NCBI RefSeq assembly: GCF_964204865.1 | Contig: NC_135257.1 | Coordinates: forward strand, 15,996,001-16,060,000 | DNA from: Styela clava | Taxonomy: Eukaryota | Length of the DNA stretch: 64,000 nucleotides | Direction of reading: 5' to 3' | Part shown: positions 1-63,223 of the stretch, piece by piece | Layout: each line of letters begins with the position of its first letter | Numbering within the stretch: position 1 is the first letter of the stretch | Program-made: the position numbers and the translations under genes | The notes under the pieces: generated by a model | Database searches by the model: none | What the model was told of the DNA's origin: nothing | The model's input: the letters and a program-made list of their open reading frames with translations, nothing else

Positions 1-238
1 TGGAAAATAATTTTTTCGCGATTAATTCGCAAAGTAATACTTCGGCAATACTTAAACATTGTAACTGTTTTGACTGGGCAGAAATTTTTGTGAAAGAGGT
101 ATTCAATTTACAGCAATATAAGATGAGAAGTAAAAGCAATGTATGCATTTGGTTTACTGTTACTTGCACATTGCAGCCAGCTTTAGCCTCCTTAATACTG
201 ACATACACGGTGTTGACAGTTGCATTACCACAATAAAT
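1..238 (-). CDS. Candidate terminal exon of the ZP-C-like extension (hydrophobic tail); runs off the window edge
   Basis: Acceptor tacactag|ATT at 238, phase 0, matching the donor of the 418-580 exon. The frame IYCGNATVNTVYVSIKEAKAGCNVQVTVNQMHTLLLLLILYCCKLN... stays open to base 1. Confidence 0.3.
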   Translation of the reverse strand, partial: MYCGNATVNTVYVSIKEAKAGCNVQVTVNQMHTLLLLLILYCCKLNTSFTKISAQSKQLQCLSIAEVLLCELIAKKLFS

Positions 239-417
239 CTAGTGTAAATTATACCTGCTTATACCTTAATCCGACAGAGACCTACATGGGTGGTTTGTTT
301 ATTTGAAAATATTAAGGCAGCTGTAATTCATTTATCCGTTGACCTCAAGAGTTCTCAGATGAGTAAATACAAGGGGGAAGGAAGTACAGAATTTCTTTGC
401 ATGAAAATTTCATTTAC

Positions 418-580
418 CTTGCTCGAACACTTTCCATTTCTCTTGAAGCAGAGACCAATTGTGCACGAGATATCCACTTTCCTTCCTCTGAGTGAGAAGT
501 TTTGGTAACGGAAACGGAAGCGGAAGTTGGAAAATGATTTCATAGTTGTTATCGGTAGTCCAATATTTTGATTCGGACAA
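418..580 (-). CDS. Candidate exon encoding the second half of a ZP-C-like domain
   Basis: Acceptor tttcttag at 581-582 and donor AAG|gtaaat at 417. Encodes xCPNQNIGLPITTMKSFSNFRFRFRYQNFSLRGRKVDISCTIGLCFKRNGKCSSK, resembling the ZP-C pattern GCP...RFxFxxF...VxLxCxVxLC....C (recognised by eye). Confidence 0.5.
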
Positions 581-1265
581 CTAAGAAACAAATATGCTAT
601 GATTTACCTATGGTAGGAGTTGTAGTTAAGGAGAAATATATTATTTTTATAAGTTGAAGAGTCATGTTCTGGTCAAATATACTTAAAAATCCTACAACGG
701 TATTTTGTAATAAATAATGACCCTGAACAATACTATTAATATTTCAATTAATTTCAGTTTCGTGAATTTGTAACTACAGTTCGAAATCAGGAAATAATAC
801 GCATAAAGACTACACTTTTTTCCGGTATGATATATTATTTTGAGTGTTTTGAATTTTTAAGGTAATTCAAGAAACACGTCAATTGAGTTCGTATCCAGAA
901 ACAGCATATCATGCGATTTAGTGATATTTTTTTTAATGAATAAGTGGCATAAACAGATATATTGTGGTAAACTTTAGATAATCTAATGTTGAAAGTGTTA
1001 AGTCTATATACTTAGCCTAGAACGAATAATGCCATATTTATAATGCCATTCAAACAAAGCAGGCCCCATGGAAACGCAATCACGTGAATTCGTAAACAAC
1101 TGAGTGTGGCTGGGGGAGAAGTAATACTCGACTAGCGAGCGAATTTTGTTTTCAGGTTAAGAGTTGAAATCACGCATAAGTTAAAATATTAGGTTTGCGT
1201 CGATATCAGTGCGCTTATTTCCAAATGAACACGACATCGCCGGATTGTTAGCATATATCTTCTAA

Positions 1266-1775
1266 ATGGAAACGAACTACGTATATAAAGCCATTTTCGT
1301 CATCTGTCTTTCAGTATCAAATAGCCAATTGTTGCACAGTCAAGTCCCATTGAGGCCAGAATTGGTCGTAGTTTTATCATACTTGGCATCTGATATTTTC
1401 AATAGATTGAAAGTTACCCATTTAGAATCAACTGTACGCTCTGCTGGCGATATTTGGAGTTACTTTCAGAATATGCCGTGCAGTCAGTCACTTCGATTCC
1501 CGCGAGGGCAGGCACGGTTTCTTTTAAATAGTTTTCGCGTCTTTCATCGTACCCCACCTCGACAAAGACCATTTCTCCTATACGTTTGTGGGCGCCTGAA
1601 GAAACAAAACGAAATGGGTATCCAAATATTATTTATTCCGTGGATAATAAATATAGACAAGACATACCATATGCTATTGACAGCTGAATACTGGGAGAAT
1701 GGTGAATTATATGTTAGATATGAGTTTGTTTTGACAAATATGTCGGAAGTGGCAAATGGTCTACAATCTACATAA
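1266..1775 (+). CDS. Orphan 169-aa ORF with signal-peptide-like N-terminus
   Basis: True ATG and an uninterrupted 169-codon frame in AT-rich DNA. N-terminus METNYVYKAIFVICLSVSNSQ. Splice-acceptor-like ttgttttcag near 1155 and AATAAA near 1989 and 2122. No family recognised. Confidence 0.35.
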   Translation: METNYVYKAIFVICLSVSNSQLLHSQVPLRPELVVVLSYLASDIFNRLKVTHLESTVRSAGDIWSYFQNMPCSQSLRFPRGQARFLLNSFRVFHRTPPRQRPFLLYVCGRLKKQNEMGIQILFIPWIINIDKTYHMLLTAEYWENGELYVRYEFVLTNMSEVANGLQST

Positions 1776-2708
1776 CCATCAGTAGTAAGTAGTAAATCGT
1801 AAAAATAGACATTTTTCAAAACACAAAAGGATAATTGCCTAACCGTATACCACTGACTAAATATGAGCAAACAAATTTGAGGGAATCGAAGCATGAAAAT
1901 AATAATAAGAGATTCGAGCACGTTGTGATCTTTTCCATCCATAAGAAATTTAGAATTTTGACGTTTTTTTTCACCCAACATTAGTGGAAATAAATATTTA
2001 TCGGAATACAGATCTTTATACTTGCGGAGAAGGTATTGCACTATTTGCTTAAGTGGTGATGTGATCAAGCTAGTTAAAATTGAGCAACGTACGATCTAAA
2101 ATATAATTGATTAAGGAATCGAATAAAGACGTCATTCCGTGGACTGCGCGTGGATTATGACGTCAGCATTCAATCTATATGATTGACTGTTCATTCACCA
2201 TCTGTGCCACCGTAATTACCATCATTATGCATGTATTAAAAACGAATACACAGGAGAAAATGCACTATTGCTTAATTGCTTTGAAAGTCCCAATGCAGCC
2301 ATTGTAAAGGTGGGAGGATAGTGCCATCTAGGGGTGAAATACTAAAAAGCGTTGTTAACAAGATATCATTTTACGTATTTGAAGAAACCAGAACCAGCCA
2401 TCTAATTTCATATTTCATTTTTTCTTGGTATTTTATTCGTTTTTATTCATTGTTTTCTTTAATTGTAGTTTGGATGATTTAAATGACGACAATATATTAG
2501 GAAATTCAACTCGGAAAGTTTTACTATAAACCTAAAAGTTTGTTTGAAATCCAAGATGAATTTAAGTTATTAGCATTCCATTGATTAGGATCATCGGCAT
2601 TTACATGTTTGTAATGCTTGAAACGAGCAAAACATTTTGCCACGCACACAGTCCTACCCGCGCACAACTATAGCTATGGAACTTTACTACCAACTACTCA
2701 TTACTTAC

Positions 2709-2852
2709 CTGGTTTCAATGGTTTTGTGTAACCAGAATCTGCATATAACGTTATCGTTGGTTGATAATTCAGAAGAAAAAGTCCACCCCAACCGAGTATA
2801 CTCGACATAGTTTTACGATGAACGTCAGGTTTTTGTATAATAAGTTGTCGAT
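2709..2852 (-). CDS. Extra in-frame exon downstream of the peroxidase domain; start of a ZP-C-like module
   Basis: Acceptor atcttcag|AT (2852) and perfect donor CAG|gtaagt (2709), 144 nt, phase 1 to 1. Joins the peroxidase donor GGA G|gtaaac at 3067 in frame: DRQLIIQKPDVHRKTMSSILGWGGLFLLNYQPTITLYADSGYTKPLKP. Confidence 0.6.
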
Positions 2853-3010
2853 CTGAAGATAGTTCATGACAAGTACATTAAAACGTAATTCTAGCTTGAA
2901 CCCACGTGAATAAACGGGGTTATGGGACAATCTATTGCGTATTGTTATCTGGTCAAATGAAAAAATTGTCCATAACATAGTTTACGTCTAAATTCACAAA
3001 AGTCGACAGT

Positions 3011-6000
3011 CTATTCTGATATTGCACCCAATAGGCTCTTAAGATGAGAATTGTGAATTTGTTTACCTCCGGTATTTGAAAAATCTCTCCACATGTTCAA
3101 GTCTACATTTGGAAGAAGTTTGCATGGTACTGGTGTATTGGTCAATACGTTCGGAAGCCTCATAGCTGATGGTTGAATGTTTGTTAATTGTGGCATGTTG
3201 TTACAAATTACTTTTGCCAACGTAGTCTTTCGAAGCTCACGTACTTGTTCTGAAAGTTAGTAATAATCAAGTAATACTTTAGAATTTCTTGAATTCTGAT
3301 CATTCTCACACCAAAAATTGTGACCCGCCCGAATGGACACAATGCAGAAATTCATGCTCTCGGATTTATTTAAAAATTGAATTTCGAATAAATTTTTTAT
3401 AAACACAAGTGAATTTTCTCTGGAGGTTACACTAGGCGAATGCAAGTATCGATAACATCAATTTTATACACAAAAAAAAAATTTGTAAAATTTTTGCACT
3501 TGCTTCCTCTTAATGTTTCAAGTTCAGCTAGCAAGAAGTAAATAGCAAAGAAACTGATAGGATAGAATTTACATATTCATCCTGGGATTAAAAGGAAATG
3601 CACGGAGAAACATAAGACCGCGAGAAAGGAAAATACTGAAAACCATCCAAAGTTTGTAAATAGAGGCTGATGGATGTCCTCTTTTTTTTGAAAGTTGGAT
3701 TGTCGTATTTTAAGAATTATCTGAAACCTAAATCAATAACAAGTTCTTTCTTGCATCGTATATCAAAGTTATATAAATACCTTGATTGAAAACAGCATTA
3801 GGAGGTTGGTTGTCAAACCAGAATCTATCTCCTTGCTTTAATTTGACGAATTGGTTTTTCAATATACAGGCAAAGGTTGGTCCTACAGTACTGCCTTGAA
3901 CAGCTTTCTCCAATAAACCACCGACATAAAGATCGATATCTTCCACTGACCTGTGGGTAATTGTGGATCAGATGGAGTAAAAATAATCATGTTACTGCAA
4001 AAGATAATTCGAATAAATGCAAACAGAGAACTTGGATTATTTGAAAGTCAACAGAAATACACTGTTCTGATTTGCTCATTCAAAACAGGTTGCTCAGAAC
4101 TTACTTTAATTTCAACCCCTCCTCGTTCTATATCAGGGGTTCCCAAACCGCGGCCCGCGGGCCAATTCCGGCCCGCGTAACAATTTAAAATGGCCCGCCG
4201 AACTTGAGTAAAACGATGTTGTTATGTCATTACCACAGTTTAAGCACGTGTTTATCGCGTACCATTTCAATTATGCCGATATCTCAATAATACGTACCGG
4301 TATTACTGTGTTTCCCCAAAAATAGAACAGATTATTTCAATTTTCTTTCGAAAAATATAACTAGGGCTTATTTTCGGGGCGTGTCTTTTATTTTCATGAG
4401 TCAAAAAAAAATTACAAAGATTTTCAAATATAAAAAATATGAAAACCAATATCCATTTACTTAAATGGCACGTTTTCCTCTTTCACACTTGTTAGATTAA
4501 TCATTTACAACGTGTAGGGGAGATTTCCTGCTATCGACTAGGTACTATACGTCTTATTTTACGGTGAGGCTTATATTAAAATAATTCTTAAAATTCAGGC
4601 TAGGTCTTATTTACGGGATTGGTCTCATTTTCAGGGAAACACGGTAGGATTACAAAGAGCAGTAATTAAGTTATCAGCCGTATAAGAAAGCTTACAGATG
4701 TCAAAAAAACAAACAAAACTAGACTTTGCAAATAGACGTTTCCGGGATAAATGGTAGCTCTCATATTTCTGTATTGCAAAGAATCAAACTTCAGCGATTT
4801 GTCTTGCCAATGAAATATTCCAGTTCTGAAGGAATACGACATTAAGCGCCATTATGAGTCAAACAAACAGATTGCAAAAAATGTCAAATGAAAGTGAATC
4901 CACTGAACCCCAGCTAAACCGCCGCGAACTTTCGGGCGGTAAACTCTTCCGGCCTCCCGATTTCAAATTTGGCCCGCGTCCAATAAAGTTTGGGAACCCC
5001 TGTTCTATATAGTGCAACAATCATTCACTTTCAATTCTAGATCCCAATCTATATATTGTATTTCGAAACTCTGCATGATTTTTTTATAGTGTCACTTAAA
5101 AAAACAGATATATACCAAAAAAAAACTACAATAGTTTACAGTGCATACCTAATCTACTTTTTATGTTTTAAGCAACGATTCTGGAGTATAATATAAACAA
5201 ATAGCGAATATATATAAAACTAGGTTAATCACAAGGTTCTAACAACTAAAATTTTCAGTGTCAAAATAATGTTTTATTTATTATGGTGAAGTTGTTCAGT
5301 TTAAAAATATCGCCTTTTGGTTATTCACTATATATATTAACATGCAATAATAAACTTCCTGCACCTGTATAAAGTTCGAAGCATATTGGATTGTTTTTCA
5401 CTGAACACAACGTTCAAATCTACCATCATTGAAATATTTGAAAATCCACACCATTGGCGCCATTTATTATATCCAGGTATTCCGTGGTCCCGACCTCAGA
5501 TAAATAAAACTTTGATAATCATAAATTTGTGCGTCATCCGACAATTTTTTTGATTACAGTACAAGTTTCATAAATAATACAATTAGTCATGGATATTTAG
5601 CCCAACAAGGTTTTTATTTATCTATGGGCATTTTAAGATAAAAATTTAATGCGTATTACCTCTTTGAATGTTAAGTGCAAGCAAGTCAAGTCCTGGGCCA
5701 CTTCCGTTCGCAAACATCCTGTTTCTGAGTGCATTGGTGAATTCGCCGTCTATCTCGTTTCCCGGAGTTGACAGCAGACAAGTAGATAGCCCATTTGGAC
5801 CTGTAGTTTGAGAACTTTCGAAATGAGTGCATAAAGAAGGCAATCAATCTTGTTGGAGAAGTCACTAATATAGTAACGTGAATAGTATAGTAATTGAAAA
5901 CGTGCAAGTATAATATATTATAGAAATGTTCTGCTTCCTGGTATTGGAAGTCTCGTCCAGTCTAGACTGTGTGTTTTGCATTCTCATTTAGCAAGCAAAA

Positions 6001-9000
6001 ATCATTTTTTGATCATTTGGATATTTTTGTTGTAACATTCATTGTGAATGTAACAAGAGCAGTACGTTGATCATCGATACCCATTTAACAATGGTTCAAT
6101 CGCATCAAGCACTTTCGCAAATTGTGCTACGCAATTGATGTATAGATACTCTATATAATATGTTACCTCAGATTAGTTCTCAAGTTAAGGGGTTCAGAAA
6201 TTAGAACGGGGGCGAGGGGAGTAATTCTAAATTAAATAAGTAACATCAAGGTTAAATTATGTGCCTCCATGGATATATACGCACAGGATTAGATGTTGTC
6301 ACTCACCTATACTATTATTGTATAAGCTTGAAGGGTTGAAAAATGCAACATCCAAACTGTCGTCACTCATTTCATCTGTGCTGGAAGAGGCCTCCTGTGG
6401 CTGAACAAAACTGTCCGTAACTTGACTGTGTCCAAACCGAAAAGCTGCAGTTGCAAATGCGTTTGAAATTGTAGGGTCTACTTCGGGATTGTATTGTGAA
6501 AGAGATTCTCCATCATAAATAGACAGGGCCATTTCGTCACCTAAAATGTATACCTCAGCTTAACATTAAAACGACCATCTGGTATGAAATGTAAATCTAA
6601 CGAGGATTTGTCATAGATAGAGTATTCCACAAGACGAGGATAGAATGCTCAAACATAATATACGCTTCAATAATCTTTGTATGTGTGAATAGGTGTTTGA
6701 AATTTAAGTTCTAAAATAAAATATTTAGCATATTTTTAAATGCTCCTACATTATACAAAAACATTGATGTAAGGTTTCAATTTTAAACTGCATGCATTTT
6801 CATTTAACTATAAGCTACCTAAAATTTCTTTCATATACTCTGAATATGTTATATGCTGATGCTGAGCAATGATGATTTGTCTTGTCTCCCAGAAAATTCT
6901 TCGTTTACTCCACCTTGGATTTATTTCCCTCAAACTCTCAGCAATCCTATTGTGTTCTCGAACCCACAAAAGATGAATCAAAGTCAAAGTAGGTGTTTCA
7001 TTCACCCTACATTGTATAAAAAAAATTTGGTATTCATTGAATTGATATTAAATGGTATACAGACATAAAGAATAGAATGTAGAAATGTTTCGATAAATTT
7101 GTTCCGCCGCTTCATTTTTGTGGCCCGTGTCGCATTTGCGCAAGGACAAACAAAAAATCGCATTTGGTGTTGTTTCTTCATAAAACCAGAAAAAATTTTT
7201 GACATATTGTTACAACACCTATGTTATTATCACATCACTGAGTTGACTAGTGTTATGACTAGCTGAGGCAACTGGCGGAGTTTAGTAATTTGCGTGGCTG
7301 GTCCAAATTGTTAACTGGTTTCTATATTTTCGGTCGGCTAAAACGGTATTTTCTCCGTATGGCACTTTCTCCAATAGATGAAAATTTTGAAATCTTACAA
7401 TAAATGTAGACATAGCCAAATTTTTGCACGTTTCAGTGAGTTTTTTTTGTGGTGTTTGCATATATTTTAGCTCGATAAATGACAAATGGGTTTGGACAAT
7501 AGAAGAGTTTGTTTTTGTATATATTGTTTACCTATTCTTGGCACTATTGTGGCCCGCGAACAATACAAAAATTATGATGTTGCCCGAGAGGCCGACAACC
7601 TTGTACCACCTTGGTTTAAAGGAACAAGCTTCAAATTCTTACATTCAACCTAATAACTTAGGGTGAACTTTGAAGTTTCACAGATGTTTTTTACCTGAAA
7701 TCTCCTGCAGCAAAACATTTTCCGTGTGATTCAGGTCCGGGACATTTGAATTTATTGCTGAACGTTGTTGACACCTTGTCGTATTCAGGAAGTAAATATT
7801 TCATTGGTGAATTAGATACTAAAAAATATAACTGAAGTTAGTACTTTATTAGCAGGAGTGGGTCAAATACATGAAAATGTAGAGACAATAAGCTAGACCC
7901 ATATGTAATAAACAGGACATAGATAGAAATTTTCTCTACTTCGAGATATGGAAAAGAAAATCCAATTTTTGGTTCATGATGTATTATATCGAGCAACTAT
8001 GATGGCTTTGCTGAATGCTTTCTAAAATCATTTCCAAAATTGCGTGACTATTGATAGAATATTACTTGTTGAGTATTATAATTAAATTCTAAAGCCTTCG
8101 ATGTTTATTGTAAAAATGTGTTATTGTTCAATATATTCTATTCTCTAATATATTCATAATAATATATAATAGTTCATAATATATTCTGTATCTAATACCT
8201 TCCATAGTGCTTTGGTGTTCGTTTGACAATGTTTCCAGTAGTGTCTGTGTGGATCCATACACAGTGCTCGCGTCGATGTAAGATGTTATCTGATTGACCT
8301 GTGTATAGTAGATTATATATCATAGATGCTTTCGAAATTTGTGTTTTCGTTATAACAAAAACATTGATTTCAAAGATCCTAAACTCATGCCTTTCTAAAG
8401 TCCCCCACCTGTTCCCTATAAACATTTTTTGTGCAGCCATTTGGCACAGTTCCAGCAGATCGAGATAAAGGTATACATCCTGTGGTTCTTCCAAGTTCTA
8501 TATCAGCAACTGAAACCCGAATATTGTAACAAGATTGAAGCAAAGACATTCCGCAATTGCATTCAAGTTTCTGGCCTTGTTGGTCTGTGAATTGTAATGA
8601 TTGCTATTTAGAAAATCTATCTTCCTGAATTATTTTACGTTTTGTTACTTAATTCCGTTCATTAATCTTATGTCCTGCTGTATTATTATTTGTCTTGGCG
8701 ATGAACTTTGGAATACATCCCACCTGTAGCCATAGGCGTGAATGAAAAATCATGTGAAATATATTGTCCCCACTGCATCAACATAGCAGAATGATGTTTT
8801 GAAGGATCCACGTCTTCAAGTTGCATACTAGTACTCACGCGTCTGGCGTTAGGAAGAGGAAAACCTGTCGCGCTACATCTCGGCATTTGTTTATCTGAAC
8901 AAGAACTAAATGTAAAACAAAATACATGAGTAATTTCGTGCTGAATTTGAATAAACTGAATAAGACCGCAAATCAAACAAGATATCCCCGGCGCTTACAG

Positions 9001-10377
9001 ATCAAGCATCGTTATCGGTGGTGTTGTATTGAATGTTGTTATATACATTGCATGTCTTTAAGCTTTAAAATGCCAGCTTTGTGTATGATTTTTGTTTTTG
9101 TTTGGAGCCAATTTATTTATTCAATTCATACGTCATTTATTCACCAACATACATTTTCCAGAAAACGTCAAAAATTGACTCACTGTCGCAGTAATCGGGT
9201 TCCAGATTTCTATTGAAAGGTCTTTGATTTTTTCCCCAGAAAAGGTTCTGTAAATTATTACAAGACCCATCTATGGATGAATATCGCTTCATAAACGAAC
9301 TTCGACCATCACATATTGATGATAATTCAGTTTCGTTCCAAAATTCAGCTGCTTTCTGACACGTCATAAGCTCTGCTCTGGTTTCAGAATCCCCGTGAGT
9401 ACGATATCCACTGAGAAAAAAGATATAGTACCACTGACAACCGTTTTTTCATACGTGTTTTTAAAGGCCTTTCATGAAATAGAAAATCCCAGGGAGTGAA
9501 TTCGATAGAACGACCCGATAACATTGTGCAACATTGTTTTCCTGTTTTTATAACCAGTTAAGGTGTGAGAATTTAAAATTTACTGACGGGCGACAACAGG
9601 TGAATATTTTTCTTGGTGCACCGAGTTCAGAGTAGAAGTACAAAGATTGGTCTATATCATCTATAAAATAAAAATATATTCATCAATTTTCTTGCATCCA
9701 AAATAATTTAGTTCATGATCCAATTTTAGATTATTCTATATGCGAGTTATTGTAATGAATTCAATTAACGATGTATAGGTTAGACACGTGACCATGAGTC
9801 AAAATGTTAAAACATTTACCCAATGTAATTGCGCAAAGCTGCAGTAATTTACAAAAATGAAGTGAACTAGCATCCAGAGAAAAAGCACAGCGAAGAGATA
9901 AATGCTTGCCAACATTATTTTATTGCCTTTACTGATCCTTTGCAGTAACACTATAGTATATATATATATATATTTATCCGAATTGAATAACGCAGAAATA
10001 AACGATAACATATATATATAACTAGCATATTTAATACAATATCACATACGTAAATTTGTCAGTTATTAATCCAAAACTTCAGTCATGTAACATATTGATA
10101 TTGAATATCGAAAATATTGATACTAATTGCGCTCACTCATTGTCAGAAATTCCAAGATCTATCTCCTTTCTGAAGACGCTGTCATCTTGCACACGGAAAG
10201 CAGATAATAATCGGTCAGAATCTTCTTGTCCATTGACCAATTTTAAAGCTGAGTAACAAAATATATATATGCTTGTTTTCCCGACAGACATTTGTGTAGT
10301 CAATGCACAACTTTAAATAGGAACTTACCAAAACCAATCACTATTGTCATAAGTGCACAGTTGCATTTGGTTTCCAT
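3011..10377 (-). CDS. Secreted animal heme peroxidase (peroxidase-cyclooxygenase superfamily; peroxinectin/MPO/TPO-like), about 15 exons
   Basis: Approximate exons: 10377-10329, 10248-10137, 9866-9820, 9660-9588, 9410-9184, 8894-8724, 8584-8409, 8298-8199, 7818-7695, 7006-6819, 6540-6307, 5850-5660, 5494-5365, 3950-3781, 3249-3011 (or -3067). Motifs: signal peptide METKCNCALMTIVIGFALKLVNG, YSSIDGSCNN, QWGQYISHD (distal His), ITSYIDASTVYGS, GDFRVNETP..REHNRIA, AFRFGHSQV (proximal His), LNIQRGRDHG, DIDLYVGG, LKQGDRFWF. Confidence 0.93.
4134..5002 (+). mobile_element. Deleted hAT (Buster/SPIN/Charlie-like) transposon in a peroxidase intron
   Basis: TIR CAGGGGTTCCCAAAC / GTTTGGGAACCCCTG, perfect 8-bp TSD TTCTATAT, GGCCCGCG subterminal motifs, decayed transposase start at about 4698-4865 (MSKKQTKLDFANRRFRDKW*...AICL...KEYDIKRHYES). 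Confidence 0.9.
4306..4644. mobile_element. Tc2/pogo-like MITE nested in the hAT element
   Basis: TA-flanked, ends CTGTGTTTCCCCAAAAATA / TTTTCAGGGAAACACGG. Related copies at 17217-17728 and 34924-35277. Confidence 0.8.
7112..7615 (+). mobile_element. Truncated copy of the hAT MITE family seen at 44497-45389
   Basis: Shares tgtggcccg.gtcgcatttg and tacctattcttg...attgtggcccgcgaacaat...caaccttg.accacc.tg with 44497-45389 and 58468-58652. Confidence 0.7.
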
Positions 10378-11415: not shown

Positions 11416-14400
11416 CTACCACAATTTTCTTCCAATAAATTCAAATAACATATCATTGTAAGGCTTGAAGAATGTGTCCAAAATTTTTAGTGAGTTCGGA
11501 TTCGGTACGAATGAGGTAGAATTTGATCGAGTTCTTCCTTTCGCCCTCCCATGCGCTGTCGCAGTATAACAATTCATCGGAGCGTACTTGACTTTTGAGT
11601 CAGCCACACTGGTAGGTCTGATGCAATATAAACCAGTATCTGGATTTTTCACGAAATCGTCAGGCAGAATCATCCTTGGAATTCCTAGAAAATCTTGAAG
11701 CTGGAAATAAATAAAGCAGAATGAAACGGAATGATTAAAAAATGAAAAAATGCGGTATAGTCATTTTGAAATTTATTTCAAAAAGGGGATTCCGCCTTCA
11801 AGATTCCGCTTCCTATAAAAGGCCAGCAATAGTATATGCGCATATGTAGCGACACTTAACGCCAACTCGGCCGCTTCGTAACGCCTACCGCCTTCGGTTT
11901 TGGGGGTTCAAATTGTTTGGCGCTCTACTTGTAGCTGCAGCAAGACACACGTGTCAGACGCAAGGTTCTGTCTGTCCCGGAAGCTTCAATCTAATTTTAA
12001 AGTCAAGTTATTTTATCGTTCATCCGATTCGCTCATTTGATTTTAGTGTTATTTCGTTGTTTTGAATTGAAGATTATAATATACTGACATATTACGAATC
12101 TGTATCAGAGGCTTCATAGAGCGGACTTTAAAGAAAGCCCGGTCTCGTCACCGGAAATCAAAACATTTAAACCTCCAAACGCCGTGTACTGTGAAGCGTA
12201 ATAGTTGTTATTATTCTGAAATAAGATTTTGAGTTATTAAAATCAGATGTAGCGCACATACCTTCTCTACCACGGCTCCAGAATTATATTGAAGTTCTTC
12301 TCCACTCACTACAAACAATTGATCCAATGAAAAATACTTCAACCACCTGGCATAAAGAAAATATGGAAATATAATTCGACAAAAACAACGTCTACTATGT
12401 TCAATAAAAAGATATGTAAAATTGGAGAAATATTATATGTAAATATTTTTTCGGATCGTATTCAATAGCTTGGCTACGGCACATATCCAGTACAAGCATG
12501 AAAATATTAAAATAGACTAGAATATTTCTGGAATTGCCTATTTAATTCGTTACATATTGAGAAGTATTGGATTGTGGGAGAACTAGGGTTCTAGTCAGTA
12601 TTTTTATGCTGCTACACTGAAACGGGTCAGGTCAACACAGTGACGTATCTAGGGTGTGGGAGCCATGGCTCGTGCCATGGGCGCCGTTTGGATAGGGGCG
12701 CAAAAAAGGCGAAAAGTTTTAATCGTTAAATGTTTCAATAAAAACAAATTCGAATTAGTAATAACTGAAACTCGTAGTTTTACTCAAATAATAACGTACA
12801 ATTAACTCATTTCCATGAGAGTCATTATAAATTGTGAACTAACTATCAAGGGGGCGCATTTTCAAATTTTGCCATGGGCGCAATTTTATGTAGATACGCC
12901 ACTGGGTCAACACGCTAAATACTAGGCTATGGTTCAATTTGTTGCAACATTACTTTCGAAAAACTTGCATTGCAATTAATGCTAATCACCTAAAATTACC
13001 TTTTCAGCGAATGGTAGTAAATTCCTCTGGTCAGAATATGAGAATCTCCCATACGCTTATGCCAAGCATCTGAAATTGTTTCAAAGTTGTCCTCATCAGT
13101 TTTTGAGAATTTTATTCTTGCTTCACGAACAAACTTATTGACATAATTATCAAAGCTCCCCCGAAATTTTATACTTCCCAGCGCCGTCTGTAGAAAAAAC
13201 GAAATTAATGAATGCTCCCGTCTAAGTCAATAATATAAAAGTATGCAACTGGACAACTTTGCTAAACTCGACAAACAAAACTATTCGGAACATTTGGCTT
13301 TATAACAAGTCCATGCTGATTGATAAACAACTATAGGACTAAATATATATAGTATACAACTTTAAATCAGAGCCAATGTTCAAATTGATTTTGAAAAAAT
13401 ATATATGCACAATATGAATAATATGATTGTGAAATCATTACAATTAAATCATGTCTTGATAATATATAAACGTACGTAGTAATTTTAACCGTTGGGGGTA
13501 CTACTCGATAGCACGCAGTTTTACTGTATTATCGAGCGGTTTATATTTGTAGCAAACTGGCGAACGCCTCAGGATAGGATAGGATTTACATATTTATCCC
13601 GGGGGAGAGGAAAGTCGATGAGACGAATTTTTCATATGGCGAACCCCGGCCTCTCGTCCGGTTACCAGTCCAGGTCGGGTATGGGATTAGTTAGTTATTT
13701 GTTTTCGGAAGCATGGACTTGATGGTGGAGGAAGCCGTAATCGACCAGCGGTTACGTGAACCACCCTACGGCGGCGAGGAGTCCAGCAATCCTCTCGTAC
13801 ATGAACATCCCCGCATGGGATTCGGACCTTCGATCCCACGAAGGGTAAGAGATGCGGTGGCGAGCGTATTCCTAACGTTTTTATTTTTATTTTTTATTCC
13901 TAAGCGTATTTCTAACGCTTAGCACGATGTGCCCTTCACCACCGAGTTGATGGGGTTGTAATAGAATATGATAATTGAATGAAGCTATTTAGTCATTAAT
14001 TGTAACCTAATTACCTCATGAACAAAATCTGAAAACGTTCGCAGTGTAGGATTGCATAACACGAGCCACAATTTAACATTTGGCAACTGAGATATTATTC
14101 TTGCTGGCGTCTCTGGTGTTCCAAAATTAAAATAACCTGGAGTCTTTTCCATGCATAATTCATTTTTTGTAGTATTAGGCAATTTACTTCTGTAACATAA
14201 AAAATAGCAATTGATTCACTATTCATTATTACTGAAACAGATCATAAGTTTAGCATCCCCATTGGGGGATACGTCACAAACAATATGAGGCATTTTTAGG
14301 GAAATAAATGTTAAAAGTTACTATTTTTCATGTCAATTCTACGTTTCATGTGTCTCGTACTTAAATATTTTAATTTTAAACTTCAGTGAAATAGTGCTGT

Positions 14401-16669
14401 AATGTGTTTTTGAATTTAATCCAATTAACTCTATATTTGAATCAAAGCAATAACACCATAATCTTTATTTCTGCAAAAAAACATTTGATATGCGGAATTC
14501 TCCACATCTCATTGTCTCACTTTTTAGCCATTAATACAATAAGAACGGAATCATTTTCATAAAGTTGTGCAGTTTTCTGTTATCTTATTTCTATTTATTA
14601 TATTGTGAAATATTTTTGAAATTCCAAAACTGAAAATTATATATTTCGTATAGTACACCCGAAGTATGTGAACCAAGATGGCGGACACCGGAACGTAATA
14701 TGTATTGTGTACATGGTTAGGGTTAGGTCATAATTGTATTCCAATTTTTCTTATTTTAGTTCTATTACGAGTTCGGGGACTAGCCAAGTGACTCCCGTAG
14801 TATTTGTACCTGAAATTATGGCCTAACGTTAATCTGGTACATATACTACGTTCCGCCATCTTGGTTCACATATTTCGGGAGTACCTTTCTTATTTTGGCA
14901 AACTATTTCTGGATACAACGTACCGATAAAATTCCATTCCTTTGAAATAATCCCCATTATTGAAAAAATGAACTTCGTTCAAGCCAACCTTTATCATTGG
15001 ATGGTGTTGTAACGCAAACTGCAACCACCCGGTTCCGCATTTTTCAGCGCCTATTCCGATGATGTCAGGAAGACGTTTCATTTTCTGAACAAGATGTATA
15101 GCACAAAACAGTAAGTTATTTAGAGATTATAGTAAGTGATTATTTGATATTTCCTCACAGCACAATAAATCACCTCATTGTTTTTATTTCTTTTGTAGAA
15201 TTCTAACACGAGTCTGTCTCTTTCTGTCATACCCGATTTTGCGTCTGAAAATAAAAACGTAGCGAAGTGATTTATTACCCCTGGCATCGAGAATGATATG
15301 CAAAATTAATATTTAACGATATTTAATCTCCTAATTCGATCATATAAAAACAACTGTATATATAATATTTCCACCATTCAAGTAGACCTAAGTAACATCT
15401 AATTTAAAAACAATCAGAGATGAGAAAAGATTCCTCTATCCACGCCGTAGAGACGATAAAGTTAGTACAGATCGAGTATGGAAATAATGGGTAACAGTTA
15501 ATCGTTCCAAGCACGAGCACACGGATACTCCATGTTAACGGAAGATTACGCGAACCATTTTGTGATGGCGAGGAAACGGGGCAATCAGTCGGGCTTTAGC
15601 TATCGTCACCTGTTTAATAGACCGATTGATCAACATTTGAGTTTCATCACTGTAAAACCTCAGTTTAGGGTACTCCCGTAGTATGTGTACTAAGTTAGGG
15701 TTAGGGCATAATTTTATTCTGATTTTCCTTCTTCAGTTTTATTACGAGGACGGGGGCTGTCTGTGTTAGCCAACTGCTCATAGATTTCAGTTCTTTTACA
15801 GTGCAGGGGTCTCCAACTCAAAACATGTCGCGGGCCAATTTTTGAAAGTTATTGACCACGCGGGCCGCAAACCAAGAACTTAGATACAAAAATGGGTATC
15901 TGAGTGTATCGTGATGAAATTATACTTGAATCTTACCGCCAACAAAACATGAAACATATTCATTTACTTGTGCTGGATATTTGGATTTGATGTTTTGCGT
16001 TAGTTTGCTAGTCTTAATAAAACAGCATGTTTTGTCTTGCTAACTTTCATATTTGAAAAAAAAACTGCTCGCAAATTTAAGAACTGCCAAACATCGCAGG
16101 TATGCAACGTGAATATGCAATTAGCTCTGCAAACCTTTCTTCAGAGACAATGAACTGACCGAAACTCGTTTAGTTCGAAATCATTGTATTTATAATTGAA
16201 TTGTAACAATAGAATAAAACATGAACGTGGTAAAGTGGAATAACAAGGGAAATGTTTGCTTCACTTTTTACAGTATCTTGATGATAATAGACACGATAAA
16301 ACTTACTAATAGTTTTGACATTGTACTATTTAGGTTTTTGTGGGAAAATCCCGACCATGACGCGGGCCGCAAAAAAATGCCTGGCGGGCCGCGTGTTGGA
16401 GACCCCTGCTTTACACAACTTGATGTAAAATGGGCCAACAAATGATCTACCATACACATACTTCTGGAGCGCCCTGTTTAGAACTTTTACACAATATGAT
16501 TATTTTTGTAACTCTAACGCACTTACTTACCTACTTGCTTCTCAGTCATATATATAATCTTTCGAAATCTCCACATTCTTAATAACTGCACTCCTAAAAT
16601 GGTTATCCCAACGGTAACCAAAAATAACACGAGGGATTTCAGTAAAAATCTTCGACTATGAGTATACAT
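11416..16669 (-). CDS. Heparan sulfate glucosamine 3-O-sulfotransferase-like (HS3ST family), type II membrane protein, 7 exons
   Basis: Approximate exons: 16669-16531 (MYTHSRRFLLKSLVLFLVTVGITILGVQLL, TM anchor), 15244-15174, 15084-14923 (KRLPDIIGIGAEKCGT..EVHFFN), 14188-14016 (EKTPGYF..CNPTLRTFSD), 13187-13000, 12346-12263 (RWLKYFSLDQLFVVSGE), 11701-11416 (QDFLGI..GLYC..C..KGR..FFKPYN). Confidence 0.88.
12638..12904. mobile_element. 267-bp hAT MITE
   Basis: TIR CAGTGACGTATCTA / TAGATACGCCACTG (13/14), perfect 8-bp TSD GGTCAACA, repeated GCCATGGGCGC motifs. Confidence 0.9.
13571..13945 (-). mobile_element. tRNA-derived SINE, near full length
   Basis: On the minus strand: B-box-like GGTCCGAATCC, GC-rich body and (ATCCT)n tail. 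3' fragments of the same element lie at about 18166-18308 and 48154-48301 (+). Confidence 0.75.
14652..14885. mobile_element. Merlin-like MITE (GG..CC ends, 8-bp TSD)
   Basis: About 34-bp TIR (g)GTAC.CCCGAAGTATGTGAACCAAGATGGCGGA, TSD TTTCGTAT/TTTCTTAT, internal GGTTAGGGTTAGG. Confidence 0.75.
15669..16473. mobile_element. Second copy of the Merlin-like MITE, interrupted by a hAT MITE
   Basis: Ends GGTACTCCCGTAGTATGTG / CACATACTTCTGGAGCGCC, TSD CAGTTTAG/CTGTTTAG, internal GTTAGGGTTAGGG. Confidence 0.7.
15804..16408. mobile_element. hAT (Charlie-like) MITE
   Basis: Perfect 14-bp TIR CAGGGGTCTCCAAC / GTTGGAGACCCCTG and repeated CGCGGGCCGC subterminal motifs. TSD is not clean. Confidence 0.8.
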
Positions 16670-18706: not shown

Positions 18707-21700
18707 ATGGTTATGAAAGAGACCGAGATGAGTTCTGGCCAGATTTTAAGAAGGAACCCACCTGGGACAAAGAGTGCTGTAAGTGAACCTTGAAAGCCAT
18801 GTTAGTGTAATTTAAAACTGAAAAATTAGAAATCAGTTTGCGTGTCAAGATTTGACCAAATTCTCGAAATTGGAGCTTATTTGTTCTATTTTGATTCCTT
18901 ACTGCCTTAGTTGAATATTTTCAAATCAAAGTCTTTTTCAATATGCCTAGGCCTATTTCTGTTTTGAGTAAGTTTTTAATGTGACATAGGCTTGTCTAAA
19001 ACTCAAATCCCTTTAACAAACTTCTGAGTAAAATGAAAAGCCAATATACCTACAAACATTTGCATTGTACTGCTGTACTGTTTTTACCAAAATATCTAAA
19101 GTTGATTGTTGCGCATGTTCCAAAATCCTGTTTAAATTACAATTCTTTTTTAAAATTGTCATTTCCAATTCAGATCAATTTCAAATCTTTAACTTGTTTA
19201 CCCCAATATTCAGGATCTCTATAACTGGCCAGACCAGAGTTTTGATGAGATGGATACAACACTGGCTGTCCAGCAATATATTCAACAAACCATTCGTAAA
19301 GATTACAGTGATATTGATCAAATATTATCAGCTCCAGAGGGTCAGGATGAAGGAGTATGGAAATATGAACATCTTAGGTGACCGCATAATAATACATAAT
19401 TTCTATGACGATACAATTGAGTACCATCTGATTATTTTTTTTTCAAATTCAGTATGCATGATATTTCATCAACCTATTAGTCCTATCCTTTATGTAACTC
19501 AGAAAAAGTGACTTTGGATAAACAAAAATTTTAGTTTTGGTTTTTAATTACATAAACATCACCAATCGTAATATTTTTTTACATTGTTGACGAGAATCTT
19601 GTTTTCTGACTTTTCAAAGTTCAAAATTGAATCATAAGAAAATTTGATTTCATATTTCAGATTAGGACTTCTGCTACTTTTCCTGTATCGAAAATAAAGC
19701 TGACCAGGAAGATGCGAAGTCTGATTTTTCAATAATATTGCACTATAACAATCTTGTCTCATAAATGAATCTCTTTGGGCCCTATAAAATAAAACGCACA
19801 TGTCAATATTGTAATCACACAATTACCACCCTATAAAAATCTCTTTATATTTGCAGGCAATTTTGCTTGGAACTTAATGGGCTTGCGGTCAAGCTTCAGA
19901 CTGAATGTACAGCTGAAACATGTTCACAGATGACTGCAACAGAGCAGTGGATATTTCTTTGTGCTGCTCATAAAACTCCCAAAGAATGTCCTGCTATAGA
20001 TTACACAAGACATACATTAGATGGTGCTGCATGTTTATTAAACAGCAACAAGTATTTTCCAAGCAGGTACAACACTTGACAGGGAATATTTCAATGGTCT
20101 CTCATCTTGGGACCATTTCAGATCATGTATGACAATAGCTATACATTTGGTTGTTTCAGATGCATGAACTTTAATGACTTATGATGCTGCAACAAACCAG
20201 CGGTAATGTGAATCATCCTCTGATAAGGAGTTTAGCATCTTCTCTTGCTTATAATCATTCCCATAATATGCCATTGCAAGCAGAATAGACAGTGGGAAGT
20301 CTCACTCTGTTCTTAATACTTAGCATAATGAACCAACTATCAAGTCGTCGATTTTTCTGATTTTGTACCAATATTTGCCTAAAATTGATTATAATAATGA
20401 CACATGTACAAATGAAATGGAAAATTGTTCGACCAAATATATTGTTTTTTTCTCGGCTCGAAATTCTTGAAATAAGCAGGTTAAAATGCAACTTGAAGTT
20501 TTTTTGGTATGATATTTTACCTTACTTCATGCTACAAACTCAATTTTATATCTGAATATGAAATTAGAATTGAAGATAAATGATACATCTTGATGGTAAA
20601 TGGTTTCGTTTCACAGGTATATCATTTTAAATAATTATTAATTTTAAGGTATCTATGTGATATGTTTGTCAGTATATCGCTCAAAGTCATATGAGTATTT
20701 GTCAATGCACAATTCAACATTTTTAACGTTTTTCAGAGTCAGCATCAAAGAATCATCTGTGGCGAAGTTAGGATCTGTATGTAGAAGAGTTTATAGAATA
20801 TTTTCTCATGCTTATTATCACCATAGACACATATTTGATGAGTTCGAGGCTAGTGAATATTATTTCTTATTGTGTATGTGGGATTCAGGGGTGGTTCTAC
20901 GATGTCAAATAGTAAACAAAATCTTATTTAATTTAACTTTATAGGGCTATTTTTCTTTGTAAAAAGTGATATAAATCATTACTTTGCTGATGAATTAAAT
21001 GATTTGTAGTAAACGAAAGTACGGTAATTTTGGCAATCTGTCTTCCTAATGAAAAACTTGCAAATAAAACTAATTTTGGATTCCGTTTAACTACGGTAAG
21101 TTCCTTAGACAAATCTTACTGAACCGCTGTAAAGATCGTAAAATTTTAGCTTCCAACATGATTAAAATGTATCTTTAACGTATATTTTTATTCAAATCTT
21201 TTTAAAGCAAATTATTTTGCTATTACGGTTTGTGCTTAACCTGGAACAGGTGTTATGAAGCAAGATGTGAACTTTATTTACATTGCAGAATGAAAGTCAC
21301 CTCTGTCGTAGATTCACTGTCTTTGTTGTCAAATACAATTTAATGTCACGAGACAATTTAATAGTTCCAATACTGCCTGATCCTGAGGATCCATCCCCAA
21401 AGGAAACCTCTCCGACATACACTCTTGTATCATCACAGGTATGAAATATACTCTACGCAGTTTAGCATCACTGCTTTATGTTATGCTAAGTTTGCCGAAA
21501 AGTGTTTATTGAATATGTTTTACATGATTGTTTAATGTAATTTCATGTTATAGGTTGAAAATGAAGATGGACAACCTGCCGAGGACTCACCTCTCGATGA
21601 GACGCCTGCTACAGATGATACATTGTCAACGACAATCATACAAGCCGCAACTGCGGAACAATCAGAGGACGAACCAGTTAGATTTGTTTGCTATATAATA

Positions 21701-22647: not shown

Positions 22648-24933
22648 ATTGTATGATATTTCTACCGCATACACAGAAACAGAGCACATTGTTCCAAATA
22701 TACGTGCAAACTTTGATAGAATACTGTGTTGCACTTTTGAGTATGCATGATAAGAATGCGTTTTGATCAAAAGCAAGGCTGTGTTGTTGGTATGAGCCTT
22801 TCAAGATGACATGCTTGCTTTTTATTTGCTGTTGCTATATATTTTGTATTAAGTTTATATATAATGTAGAGGAAATCAATATCTATTTGATTTGAACGTT
22901 TTATGAAAATTATGTGCAGGTAATAAGTTATGGAGTCTTATTATAGCCTTTGCTGCAAGAAAACTGAAAAAAATCAGCATAATTAACCCGAAACACATTT
23001 TGGACATGCCTACTTACCTAGTTTTCATAAGATGAATTTCTGCTGTTTTCATTACTTTTGTTTCGTAGCCTCGAACTGTTTCAATGATGCTAATCTTAAC
23101 GCATCTTTGTCTTGAGTGTTATCCGGATTGTTGTTCAACATATGATTAGGCAGTTTGTTCTCCAATGGTATAAATATAATAATTCTTATAGACTTTTGCT
23201 AAATATATTACAAACTGAACATGCGTGTAATTGGACATATATGGAAGCGTTTGCATTAGATATGAGCATGTGTTTTGCTATATCTTCACTCATCATTCGT
23301 TCAATGGAAATTTAAATGAATTTATTCCTAAACGTATGACTCAAGATATCAAGCCTGGAGTATTTGATAGAATTTTTAATTTTTTCATTTGTTTTGAATC
23401 AATGTCAAATGTGTTGCTTGTAGATTTATATGTTTTTATATGTAGGACTGTATTGTTATTTAATAAATATTGATCATTGTGTGATATTAATGACCATTAC
23501 AACCATTACAATTCAAGAATCTGCTTCAATAGAAGTGGTCTGAAAATGTCGTTGGATACTTCTCCCCCATCTTGTCCCAATTACTAAATTAGTTAAACTG
23601 TAAAGCATATACCAAAGGTTTAGGAGATGGATAACAATAAGACTTAGTTTTCGATGTGCTAACGGCACAGGGCGTATATTGCAGATAAAATTTGAAAAAC
23701 TGTTTTGAGATATTTTGAAGGATTTTTCAATTGTTTGATGTTTACGGAAAAATGTTTTATTGCCGATAGCATGATTCGTACTTTTTTTGTTAATGTATAA
23801 CTTATCACGATCTGTATGCATCGGCATAAAGGAGCCTTGTTTTTTTCCCAACATTTTTATAGTTCATTCGCCTGTTTAGAAGAGCTTTGCACACCCTTGG
23901 TCTGGAGGATGCCGCTGGAGTTCACGGAGGCCGGAAAATATCAGTACAGTAGTAGCAAGTATATTATGGCGTCCACTTTTATGTAATGTGCCAATGGCAT
24001 TTAAATGTTTACAATATATCCGTAAATGACTACAAACCGGCCACTGTCGTTTATCATCATCTGCACAAGATTGATTGTCGAAACCATGTTTTTTTCGGCG
24101 CTCGATTGAAAAACAAAACCTTTGAACCATTATTAATTTATTGTTGCATCGCGTGTGAGGAGTGAGAACCCCATGTGTCTTGTAGTGCGTAGGTAGGTAC
24201 CGCATGTCTGTATATCAGATAGATATTGACTTTTATTTCGTAATCATTGCCTTCATGAAGTTTATTTGTACAGACAACAGACATACGAAACGGTGGCTAA
24301 ACTGAAGGTTGGCGAGGCATTCTGAGAGCAATTGGGTTTTGTCGCGATTCTTAAGTAACGAAGCCTGGCAGTCGGGGCAAGACAAAATATTTTGTCCACT
24401 GTTACAAGAGCGCTTACCTGAACGAATACCGGTACCGGTATGTCAGGTCTGCATGTCGATCCCCTGGTGAGTTGTCAACTCTGTTTACTGGTTTTTACAA
24501 GTGTGGTGTCACTGTTTGGTGTCGATCGAATACGACGAATAGTAGCGTGTTTCATAGTTAAGCAGTTTGTTTCCTTCTTATTGAAAAATGCAACCGGACA
24601 CTAGAAAACAGCAAAATTAACAATTTAAAATATCCACTAATTTTAAAAATGATATAGGTACGAATACGAGTATGAGTTTAAAATGATAAATAATAATTTA
24701 GTGAATATAGAATTCAAAATTAATTTTGATTAACGTTTACTACTGTCAGACTGTAGGGTAGTCTACTAGGTTCAGGTCAGGCAGACAGGAGTATCCCCAT
24801 AATTCCACATAACTGCAATGATCAGTTTGTACCGTATATAGGATATTTCTGATATAAGGTTAAAAAAATTGTTGCTTGAATCTTAGAGTCTGATAGTAGG
24901 TAGGCCTACCTGTATTATATAGTCTAGTAAATC

Positions 24934-62400: not shown

Positions 62401-63223
62401 CGACGGTGCCAGCTTTTCCATCATTTCCGTTGACATCCATCTACACAAATAATGCTGCTAGATATTATTCGCAGAACGTTTGTTTTGAGTTTCAATTCAA
62501 TGATAACTCGCTTATATATCAAACACGCAGAAGTTTGTTATATTAATTTCCTCCTGTGAGAAATATTAAAGTTACTTAGTCGCACTGTCACTGTCGTTTC
62601 ATGTGTGTGTTTTCTAATGCTTTCATTGATATTTCATTTTCCGATTATTGGATTATTTTTGTACGTAATACAGATACTTCCCGTTCAATAATATAACAAA
62701 CCTGGAGCAATTAAGTAAATCTTTCGGATTAACATTGATCGGATAAAATTTCTCTTCAATGTGTTTTCTGTAGCAATAGGCAAAAGCTGTTGATAAATGA
62801 ACCAGAACCTATGGAATATTAAACAAATTATTTCATATAACATTGAATACTATATAATATATTAGTTTCAAACTAATTTTTGATAATTATCGGAAAAAGG
62901 ACGGAAGTGTTGCGGAGGAAAGATAGTTTATCCAGAAAGCTGGTGATTTTACTATGGTAAAAGTTTACTTTGTTATTTTACTTTTTCGTAATATATACCA
63001 AAGCCATATTGAAGCAGTATGTTAAACATCATAATTGATTGTATTTTTGACGTTTATGTGTACACGGAAAGTGCCCCTTGTCCTGGACAGGTATACACCG
63101 CAATAATAGGCCTGTGAAGTCGCAGAGGATAACCAAATTTACATACTAACTTCGAATTTCCGCATCTTCTTTGAGAGTTCTATGACTCTATCGACACTTC
63201 TGACATTTGATTCAATAGCATCT
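59498..63223 (-). CDS. FAR1: Fatty acyl-CoA reductase (FAR1/2 family), 3' portion; 5' exons lie beyond the window
   Basis: Exons 63223-63151, 62808-62702 (VHLSTAF), 62440-62262 (HPNTYTYTK YxxxK motif, IVRPSIVTSSWKEP), 61593-61431 (GWCDSMNGPVG..GKGLLR..VPVDVPIN), about 60999-60748 (IYNCT), 60193-60064, 59805-59498 (DWNKYIEDYHMGVKRYILHE plus C-terminal TM). FAR1 versus FAR2 cannot be resolved. Confidence 0.93.

Follow-up and report, generated by a model that had tools for sequence, protein, structure and literature searches.

Gene model and splice evidence

The 64-kb window (the whole stretch of DNA analysed) carries, on its minus strand, a Styela clava gene of 17 exons in which a heme peroxidase is spliced in one frame onto a ZP-C domain. 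The fusion product (P0002, 832 amino acids, for which the source names Styela clava as the organism) matches the genome letter for letter, exon by exon, and RefSeq includes this model under a generic name, with both Pfam domains present. Exons 1 to 13 (3067..10377) encode a signal-peptide-like start, a pro-region and the An_peroxidase domain (amino acids 1 to 668). The last peroxidase exon (3067..3249) ends at a phase-1 donor at 3067, in frame and exactly where the sequence-only reading had placed it. The phase-1 intron leading from the peroxidase to the tail (2853..3066; 214 nt) is absent from the X4 and X5 contigs and present in the DNA run X6; read through, the frame meets a stop at 3013-3011, as had also been claimed.

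The tail is encoded by four exons. Exon 14 (2709..2852; 144 nt) supplies a segment resembling a ZP interdomain linker together with ZP-C strand A (GWG...LYADSGY), and exon 16 (418..580) supplies the second half of ZP-C, with Cys777, Cys815, Cys820 and Cys827, the residues F-S-L at the FXF motif and a phase-0 donor at 418; both had been recognized earlier and both are in frame. A phase 1-to-2 exon linking the two had been postulated and missed. It exists as exon 15 (1418..1595; 178 nt; single copy in the genome), which encodes the middle of ZP-C with Cys755 and ends in ILNG, but the frame once offered as a candidate for it (609..722) is intronic, is bypassed by the joint 1418>580 and has no Pfam match. 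An indel suspected at the CCC run at 721-723 finds no support in a DNA contig over 545-1316, which shows no difference or gap there, the sequencing run being possibly the window's own source. The last intron (6040 nt in all) starts in the window (1..417) and leads to exon 17 outside it (G000:C9:15990377 downward, = L002:4377); this exon carries the codons for Val-Cys832-stop, followed by the 3' untranslated region (UTR). Both RefSeq models (P0001 and P0002, two alleles) terminate Val-Cys.

None of the sequencing runs is recorded as RNA, and they were treated as such because their joints are GT-AG. The predicted junction 3067>2852 is present in the X4 contig (a 214-nt skip with CT..AC ends) and in the X5 contig, with one allelic letter at the joint. 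The joints 2709>1595 and 1418>580 occur in all three RNA-type runs (X5, X4 and X1), and 418 is joined to G000:C9:15990377 (a skip of 6040) in the X5 and X4 contigs. Spliced contigs from two studies cover every tail junction; the DNA run X6 has no junctions. A single X5 contig of 2777 nt, which runs from 8894 into the 3' UTR and has the length of the whole coding sequence plus 43 nt, holds both peroxidase and ZP-C exons and rules out a separate ZP gene beginning past 3011.

The same contigs contradict a proposed junction 418>238, since they join 418 to exon 17 across the frame at 1..238, which is intronic in the transcripts seen and has no Pfam match. An X6 DNA contig carries a TTA>TAA stop at window position 132, inside the Leu run of this frame, and stop-free frames of at least 79 codons occur 70 times in the 64-kb window, so that the frame is no more than chance would provide. 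A free form produced by retention of intron 3066-2853 is likewise unsupported: contigs splice across the intron, and two paralogues use the same one. Spliced contigs suffice to explain the binned depth over 3066-2853 in X1, X2, X4 and X5, and arithmetic on the depth tables leaves a depth of about 0.5 unexplained in X3. Contigs drop rare isoforms and so cannot prove absence; low-depth contigs cover other introns.

The peroxidase half and its relatives

Pfam PF03098 matches amino acids 97 to 637 of P0002 over the full domain (1-530 of 530; E 1.6e-171), and the predicted model has an MPO-like fold when compared with MPO and LPO by Foldseek and VIA (for MPO, TM 0.87-0.89 by target; Z 42.9, rmsd 2.3, 548 aligned). 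Residues Q173, H177, R320, H420 and N504 and a TSYIDAS loop align with MPO 5MFA; we take them to be the distal Gln, His and Arg, the proximal His and Asn and the calcium loop. E323 aligns with the heme-ester Glu of MPO. As far as these aligned positions can tell, the heme pocket is intact. The N terminus is signal-peptide-like, as judged by hydropathy only, and by the same measure no hydrophobic window of >0.93 lies past the signal region of P0002; the enzyme is predicted to be secreted.

The catalytic fold and the active-site His, Arg, Gln, proximal His and Asn are shared with TPO, MPO/LPO and peroxidasin, whereas the column of the second heme-ester Asp of MPO/LPO/TPO is Ser176 in the fusion and that of the MPO Met is Thr324. 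The fusion also lacks the CCP-EGF-TM tail of TPO and the LRR-Ig and VWC domains of peroxidasin, which Pfam did not detect in P0002, and it falls outside the peroxidasin clade. The earlier view that the tail is not of the TPO type is sustained: only PF03098 and PF00100 are present, and the Styela clava genome has a separate TPO-like gene with Sushi and EGF exons, as well as a separate peroxidasin-like gene.

The nearest relatives lie elsewhere. In a tree of 22 rows, with no vertebrate MPO or TPO row, the query peroxidase clusters (support, 96/93) with six secreted tunicate WxxW peroxidases (P0080, P0235 and P0253 of Styela, P0067 and P0149 of Clavelina, and P0219), to which it is 35-39% identical. 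At the heme-ester Asp position, the query and all five others with the motif read have Ser, Ala or Thr. Mucin2_WxxW (PF13330) was found in the five other clade members scanned and is absent from the query; the tunicate WxxW peroxidases share the clade with the query but differ in carrying a WxxW tail where the query has ZP-C. The last peroxidase exon and the tail-joining phase-1 intron are common to the query and both intron-bearing clade paralogues (P0080 and P0235). Because clade relatives carry WxxW repeats behind this same intron, the tail was likely exchanged by exon shuffling.

The ZP-C tail

Continuation of the peroxidase into ZP-C, the central claim of the sequence-only reading, is upheld. 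Pfam PF00100 matches residues 698 to 828 (E 2.7e-7; 31.2 bits versus a cut-off of 24.6), and for a predicted Atlas model of residues 665 to 832, all 10 neighbours listed are ZP-C domains (TM 0.65-0.69). With the query gene left out, an exon profile derived from 12 further ZP genes of the Styela clava genome placed exon 580-418 at the top of 2790 frames (E 0.009). All six ZP-C cysteines are kept (Cys755, 777, 815, 820, 827 and 832, that is, Cys5-8 plus CysA/B). The tail is nevertheless highly divergent (best phmmer E, 0.19 versus the other ZP exons compared), and a PDB sequence search with it gave a uromodulin chain at a nonsignificant E of 0.66. In a first AlphaFold model the peroxidase folds well and the tail has a pLDDT mostly of <50; this low-pLDDT tail model resembled only generic Ig-like sandwiches (Z of 5.5 or less), with no ZP chain among the matches listed, and a second model, using exon fragments, reached a pLDDT of 33.

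The tail lacks the parts that flank ZP-C in ordinary ZP proteins. There is no ZP-N: PF23344 is unmatched in P0002, and the peroxidase and linker exons are parted only by the spliced-out 214-nt intron. No basic cleavage site, EHP or TM/GPI anchor follows, as the stop comes after Cys832, and no furin-like motif occurs beyond residue 660 of P0002; the hydrophobic anchoring tail once proposed is not borne out, the final residue of the protein being Cys832, ZP Cys8. A linker of about 19 residues (24 in UMOD) precedes ZP-C strand A, insertions of about 5 residues (strand A) and about 9 residues (strands B-C) distinguish the tail from other ZP genes, and its pI is basic (9.6).

The genome contains at least 12 ordinary ZP genes. 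Of 14 further ZP loci, 12 have a phase-2 intron before Cys6, as does the fusion gene, and exon 14, apart from an insertion of 5 residues, aligns with the exons that encode strand A elsewhere. By pattern picking at 13 other ZP loci, the exon that follows the equivalent phase-0 intron has x-Cys and then a basic cleavage site in 10 and a GP-hydrophobic EHP in 9, whereas the fusion gene stops straight after the corresponding Cys. A docking site for ZP-N on ZP-C (FXF motif and acidic pocket) has been described for UMOD. The docking column is Val in the fusion protein and Tyr (7/9) or His (2/9) at other loci; the Asp after Cys6 and the NG, each present in 11 of 14 other loci, are missing; and FXF reads F-S-L, with F804 and Q802 kept, Leu at the third position and a putative N-glycan sequon at Asn803. 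Judged from sequence, the site at which ZP-N would canonically dock appears degenerate, with the Tyr and Asp of the pocket lost. Since ZP-N is also absent, canonical co-polymerisation with a ZP matrix, as had been envisaged, is unlikely.

The two alleles differ at 6 of 165 residues in the tail versus 11 of 667 in the rest. In exons 15 and 16, 6 of the 10 listed allelic changes are synonymous versus about 21% expected (P = 0.009), or P = 0.09 for the same changes under a transition-generous expectation of 35%.

No second gene of this kind was found among 253 other fetched proteins, none of which the tail matched, or among six intron-bearing paralogues. Exon 15 matched one of nine candidates among longer proteins, and the tail region matched 1 of 268, in each case the gene itself. 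In whole-protein searches, the 120 matches listed out of 2679 included no PF00100 domain besides the query's own, and none of the best-scoring stretches in the 150 matches listed out of 13486 lay past residue 682; both are weak negatives because double-domain peroxidases crowd the lists. A metagenome scan gave no match, and an Atlas whole-protein search (clusters of 50 or more) gave no cluster with both families. No ZP-C exon lies within 10 kb downstream of six intron-bearing paralogues or within 4-6 kb of three intronless copies, in scans whose strand-E/F profile recovered the fusion gene's own exon and whose strand-B profile missed it. These searches found no orthologue in any other species, and the fusion is known from one species. 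In the accessible literature outside subscription journals, no description of a peroxidase/ZP-C fusion was found. Endostyle and thyroid-pathway papers and supplements, in their available parts, do not name the gene; among their available rows labelled peroxidase, only TPO and a glutathione peroxidase occur, and at least one supplement uses other gene identifiers, so expression data may exist.

A possible role for a ZP-C domain on its own

Canonical ZP proteins (uromodulin, GP2, ZP2/ZP4 and ascidian L022-L039) share the fold, six-Cys pattern, linker and introns before Cys6 and Cys8 with the Styela fusion, but the fusion has no ZP-N, cleavage site, EHP or anchor, its docking site appears degenerate and an enzyme is attached. 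Nematode standalone ZP-C proteins of the T01D1.8 and F46G11.6 subfamilies are described, in the accessible part of the source, as having a signal peptide, no ZP-N and mostly no cleavage site and as ending before EHP strand G (PMC7456536). The Styela protein, with its signal peptide judged by hydropathy, shares these traits, but no fused enzyme is described for the nematode proteins in that text. The Styela lone ZP-C likely arose independently, because its intron positions are shared with ZP genes of its own genome. In the Oikopleura house, according to the part of the source available (PMC3390340), oik20 (ZP) and oik21 (peroxidase) are separate proteins secreted into one matrix, whereas in Styela ZP-C and peroxidase form one chain. 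The pairing likely pins the predicted secreted enzyme to extracellular matrix.

We give about even chances to the proposal that the lone ZP-C is a non-polymerising tether holding the enzyme on an apical extracellular matrix, probably of ZP filaments. On this proposal, the WxxW exons would have given way, at the shared phase-1 intron, to 3' exons derived from an ordinary ZP gene, and the stop right after Cys8 would have removed the propeptide; the protein would thus be made already in the state that only cleavage produces in other ZP proteins. EHP-less UMOD stays in the endoplasmic reticulum (ER), so the fusion ZP-C would need some other complement. The linker could supply a strand for the EHP groove left open on a ZP-C at the end of a filament, and the fusion protein would then sit as a terminal subunit, unable to extend the filament. 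The tethered enzyme may draw on H2O2 for local cross-linking of tyrosines or oxidation of halides; Duox-like genes are present in the genome. A further proposal, conceivable if rather doubtful, is an enzyme-bearing cap whose linker enters the growing end of a ZP filament, halts elongation and cross-links or halogenates the matrix, or else peroxidase chains formed by strand exchange free of ZP-N.

ZP-C could instead complement itself and act as a monomeric Ig-like module for binding something other than ZP (a tunic protein, a glycan or a microbial surface), as WxxW may do in the sister proteins. The apparently degenerate docking site, the insertions, which could fill the EHP groove, the basic tail and the swap at a shared intron are all consistent with such a module, which is unlikely nonetheless, given that a linker close in length to that of UMOD is kept before strand A and that ordinary ZP genes offer possible partners. 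Self-assembly into peroxidase dimers or chains by ZP-N-free exchange of donor strands, the linker of one subunit occupying the EHP groove of its neighbour, seems distinctly unlikely: UMOD polymerisation requires ZP-N contacts impossible for the fusion protein, and a bulky enzyme domain lies immediately ahead of the donor strand, although EHP is absent, the linker is present, UMOD cut before EHP polymerises intracellularly and the LET-653 ZP-C aggregates.

It is improbable that the tail is a tolerated, functionless relic of a lineage-specific fusion, with the peroxidase acting free. Its occurrence in one species, high divergence, lost motifs and greater amino acid variation than the enzyme part would suit a relic. 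Against this, the tail retains its six cysteines, and its four exons are clean and in frame despite introns of 0.8, 1.1 and 6 kb; exon 16 has an excess of synonymous changes (6 of 8 listed); and neither RefSeq allele, nor any allelic change listed from the runs, closes the frame. A ZP-C domain anchored by frame 238-1, alongside a free form from retention of 3066-2853, is scarcely credible, given the contigs of two studies that cross both segments, the stop allele in the Leu run, the Val-Cys ends of both RefSeq models and the chance frequency of such frames. In its favour are an AG acceptor of the right phase for 238-1, the absence of stops from that frame in this haplotype and the loss of rare isoforms from contigs, which leaves room for a minor form.

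The Styela ZP-C bears on a question raised for the uncharacterised nematode proteins, namely, the role of ZP-C without ZP-N and EHP. In this chordate protein a lone ZP-C has an enzyme attached, its localisation and binding would be readable through the activity of the predicted enzyme, and the fusion could allow a test of what ZP-C does alone. The gene also appears to document, within a family of tunicate peroxidases, a clean exchange of WxxW for ZP-C at a single intron. Should ZP-C prove to be an address tag for ZP matrices, it would provide a route for loading enzymes on egg coats, tunics and mucus nets.

Exon structure and transcript evidence

Six of the 12 listed sequencing runs were compared; none is on record as RNA, and three (X1, X4 and X5) are of RNA type, with GT-AG joints. 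A single 2777-nt X5 contig, whose length fits the whole coding sequence plus 43 nt, bears both the peroxidase (PF03098) and the ZP-C (PF00100) exons of this minus-strand gene, confirming the sequence-only reading that the peroxidase runs on into ZP-C. The donor at 3067 and the exons at 2852-2709 and 580-418 lie on the minus strand where that reading had placed them, and its junction 3067>2852 is joined in contigs of X4 and X5, from two studies; X1 contigs break at that point. The missing link is an exon at 1595-1418, which runs from phase 1 to phase 2. Its joints (2709>1595 and 1418>580) occur in all three RNA-type runs, and with it the frame is open from the peroxidase through 418. Leaving it out breaks the reading frame, as does using frame 722-609, the link first proposed; the suspected indel in the CCC run (721-723) was not supported. 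Rather than the expected joint 418>238, contigs of X5 and X4 join 418 to G000:C9:15990377 in the S. clava genome (G000), beyond the window (G000:C9:15996001-16060000). The last exon there reads Val-Cys-stop, so that 238-1 is skipped, and the hydrophobic anchor suggested from it is not supported. One contig of the DNA run X6 carries a stop allele within 238-1, and the window holds 70 stop-free frames as long. X6 has none of the four joints (3067>2852, 2709>1595, 1418>580 and 418>15990377).

A protein search with exon 1595-1418 returned a single protein, P0001 (832 aa, “Styela clava eosinophil peroxidase-like”), with precomputed PF03098 and PF00100. A second protein of that cluster, P0002 (XP_039272499.2), is identical to the window's translation along 16 exons, and both terminate Lys-Val-Cys; the gene model is already in RefSeq, under a generic name. 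In the 3' UTR (L005:339-590), an X5 contig jumps 250 nt. The ends of this gap are not of splice type, and it is probably an indel allele; X4 contigs span the stretch.

One peroxidase intron holds a MITE-like element (4129-5007) whose terminal inverted repeats are 20 nt long and whose contig depth is high, and a sulfotransferase-like gene (11419-15126, minus; PF00685 E 0.0008, below the cut-off) lies directly upstream of the fusion gene on the same strand. The plus strand carries a Mob1/phocein exon (19837-20076), a single, apparently intron-poor open frame of 675 aa (24931-26955) that encodes Acyltransferase and GPAT_C domains and an N-terminal methyltransferase exon (58118-58405; PF05891); a fatty acyl-CoA reductase-like gene has an exon on the minus strand (62245-62457; PF07993).

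Peroxidase clade and a probable tail exchange

The peroxidase domain clusters with six WxxW-tailed peroxidases, five of them named Styela or Clavelina, at support 96/93 in a tree of 22 rows without vertebrate rows; a 47-row quick tree, with four rows omitted for want of one long stretch, gives the same grouping. In two intron-bearing Styela paralogues, P0080 and P0235, the same last peroxidase exon is followed by a phase-1 intron, as at 3067, and then by WxxW exons. The simplest reading of these structures would be a tail swap at this intron, from WxxW to ZP-C because WxxW is the tail in two genera. Eleven intronless An_peroxidase copies are clustered at G000:C1:20.5M, C1:22.5M, C4:15.6M, C17:10.6M and C17:13.2M (L046-L048), likely a retrocopy expansion beside P0080 and P0235; all three copies read have WxxW-like tails, one Pfam-confirmed. 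A TPO-like gene with Sushi and EGF domains (L041, G000:C1:12.79M) is separate, as are, judged by reading frames, a peroxidasin-like gene (L040, C19:12.08M) and two Duox-like genes (L044 and L045, C3).

The ZP-C tail exons are single-copy in the genome. No second peroxidase with ZP-C was present among 253 other fetched proteins, six intron-bearing paralogues or the matches listed in protein searches, where close ascidian proteomes are possibly absent. The peroxidase domain and ZP-C are each of known kinds; we could not find their combination, or a chordate example of a lone ZP-C that lacks the EHP, described in the literature searched, which lay outside subscription journals. The endostyle supplements searched do not show the fusion gene, and their entries are not readable by its id.

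Anatomy of the ZP-C tail

The tail exceeds the Pfam ZP-C cut-off, and all 10 of its listed Atlas structure neighbours are ZP-C; structures predicted for the tail were of poor quality. Six cysteines are kept, the last being the final residue. PF00100 has 18 exon matches elsewhere in the genome, and 12 of the 14 ZP loci read have a phase-2 intron before Cys6, as in this gene. In 10 of 13 ZP loci the matching phase-0 intron is followed by an exon that opens x-Cys and goes on with a basic site, and in nine with a GP-hydrophobic patch, these exons being chosen by pattern rather than transcript and three of the 13 not found in the DNA examined. Where other ZP loci run on, the peroxidase-ZP-C gene has a stop directly after x-Cys and therefore encodes linker plus ZP-C in the post-cleavage, EHP-released form. 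Right after the stop, the 3' UTR (L002:4368-4354) holds an in-frame R-C-D-K-R at the position that the basic cleavage site takes in other ZP genes; it may be a decayed remnant or may be chance. About 100 weak matches to the tail (E 0.6-5), judged chance, lie in a tandem unit at ~9-14 kb spacing (G000:C19:3.07M, C19:3.70M and many small contigs, L010-L021), possibly an rDNA-like array.

Predicted enzyme and proposed matrix attachment

The peroxidase part covers the An_peroxidase model in full, and its confident AlphaFold model matches MPO and LPO. Aligned to myeloperoxidase, this putatively active enzyme keeps the heme-pocket residues Gln173, His177, Arg320, Glu323, His420 and Asn504 as well as the calcium loop; the second heme-ester Asp position is Ser176, and the MPO Met position Thr. 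Loss of this Asp is common to all clade members whose motif was read. The position (P0002 aa 176) is Ser, Ala or Thr in P0002, P0080, P0235, P0067, P0149 and P0219, with Glu kept, which suggests that the tunicate clade peroxidases may form one heme ester bond only. Secretion is predicted because the only hydrophobic stretch in P0002 is N-terminal. In intron 2, a hydrophobic Met-initiated frame (9802-9915, minus) resembles a second signal peptide; it is absent from the RefSeq model and has no Pfam match.

There is about an even chance that the ZP-C holds the protein on an apical matrix, probably a ZP one, as a tether or cap that does not polymerise, with the enzyme cross-linking or halogenating there. 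LET-653 is reported to enter matrix through ZP-C alone, and PMC7456536 describes ZP-C-only proteins of nematodes whose chain stops short of the EHP. It is unlikely that the tail is instead a self-complemented module binding another ligand. Section 8 of PMC7737619 describes a docking site for incoming ZP-N on UMOD ZP-C; the corresponding site of the tail appears degenerate (Val for Tyr, without Asp or NG, and F-S-L here, with a sequon at Asn803). Self-assembly of the fusion protein looks doubtful. Two alleles differ at 6 of 165 residues in the tail versus 11 of 667 elsewhere, and of the 10 changes between alleles listed for exons 15-16, six are synonymous. The tail thus seems constrained, but loosely. 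That it is a mere relic is improbable. An anchored ZP-C form is highly implausible with 238-1 spliced over, although contigs cannot rule out rare isoforms. With ZP-C as tether or cap, the predicted secreted peroxidase would be attached through it to the apical extracellular matrix, where it may carry out cross-linking or halogenation in place.
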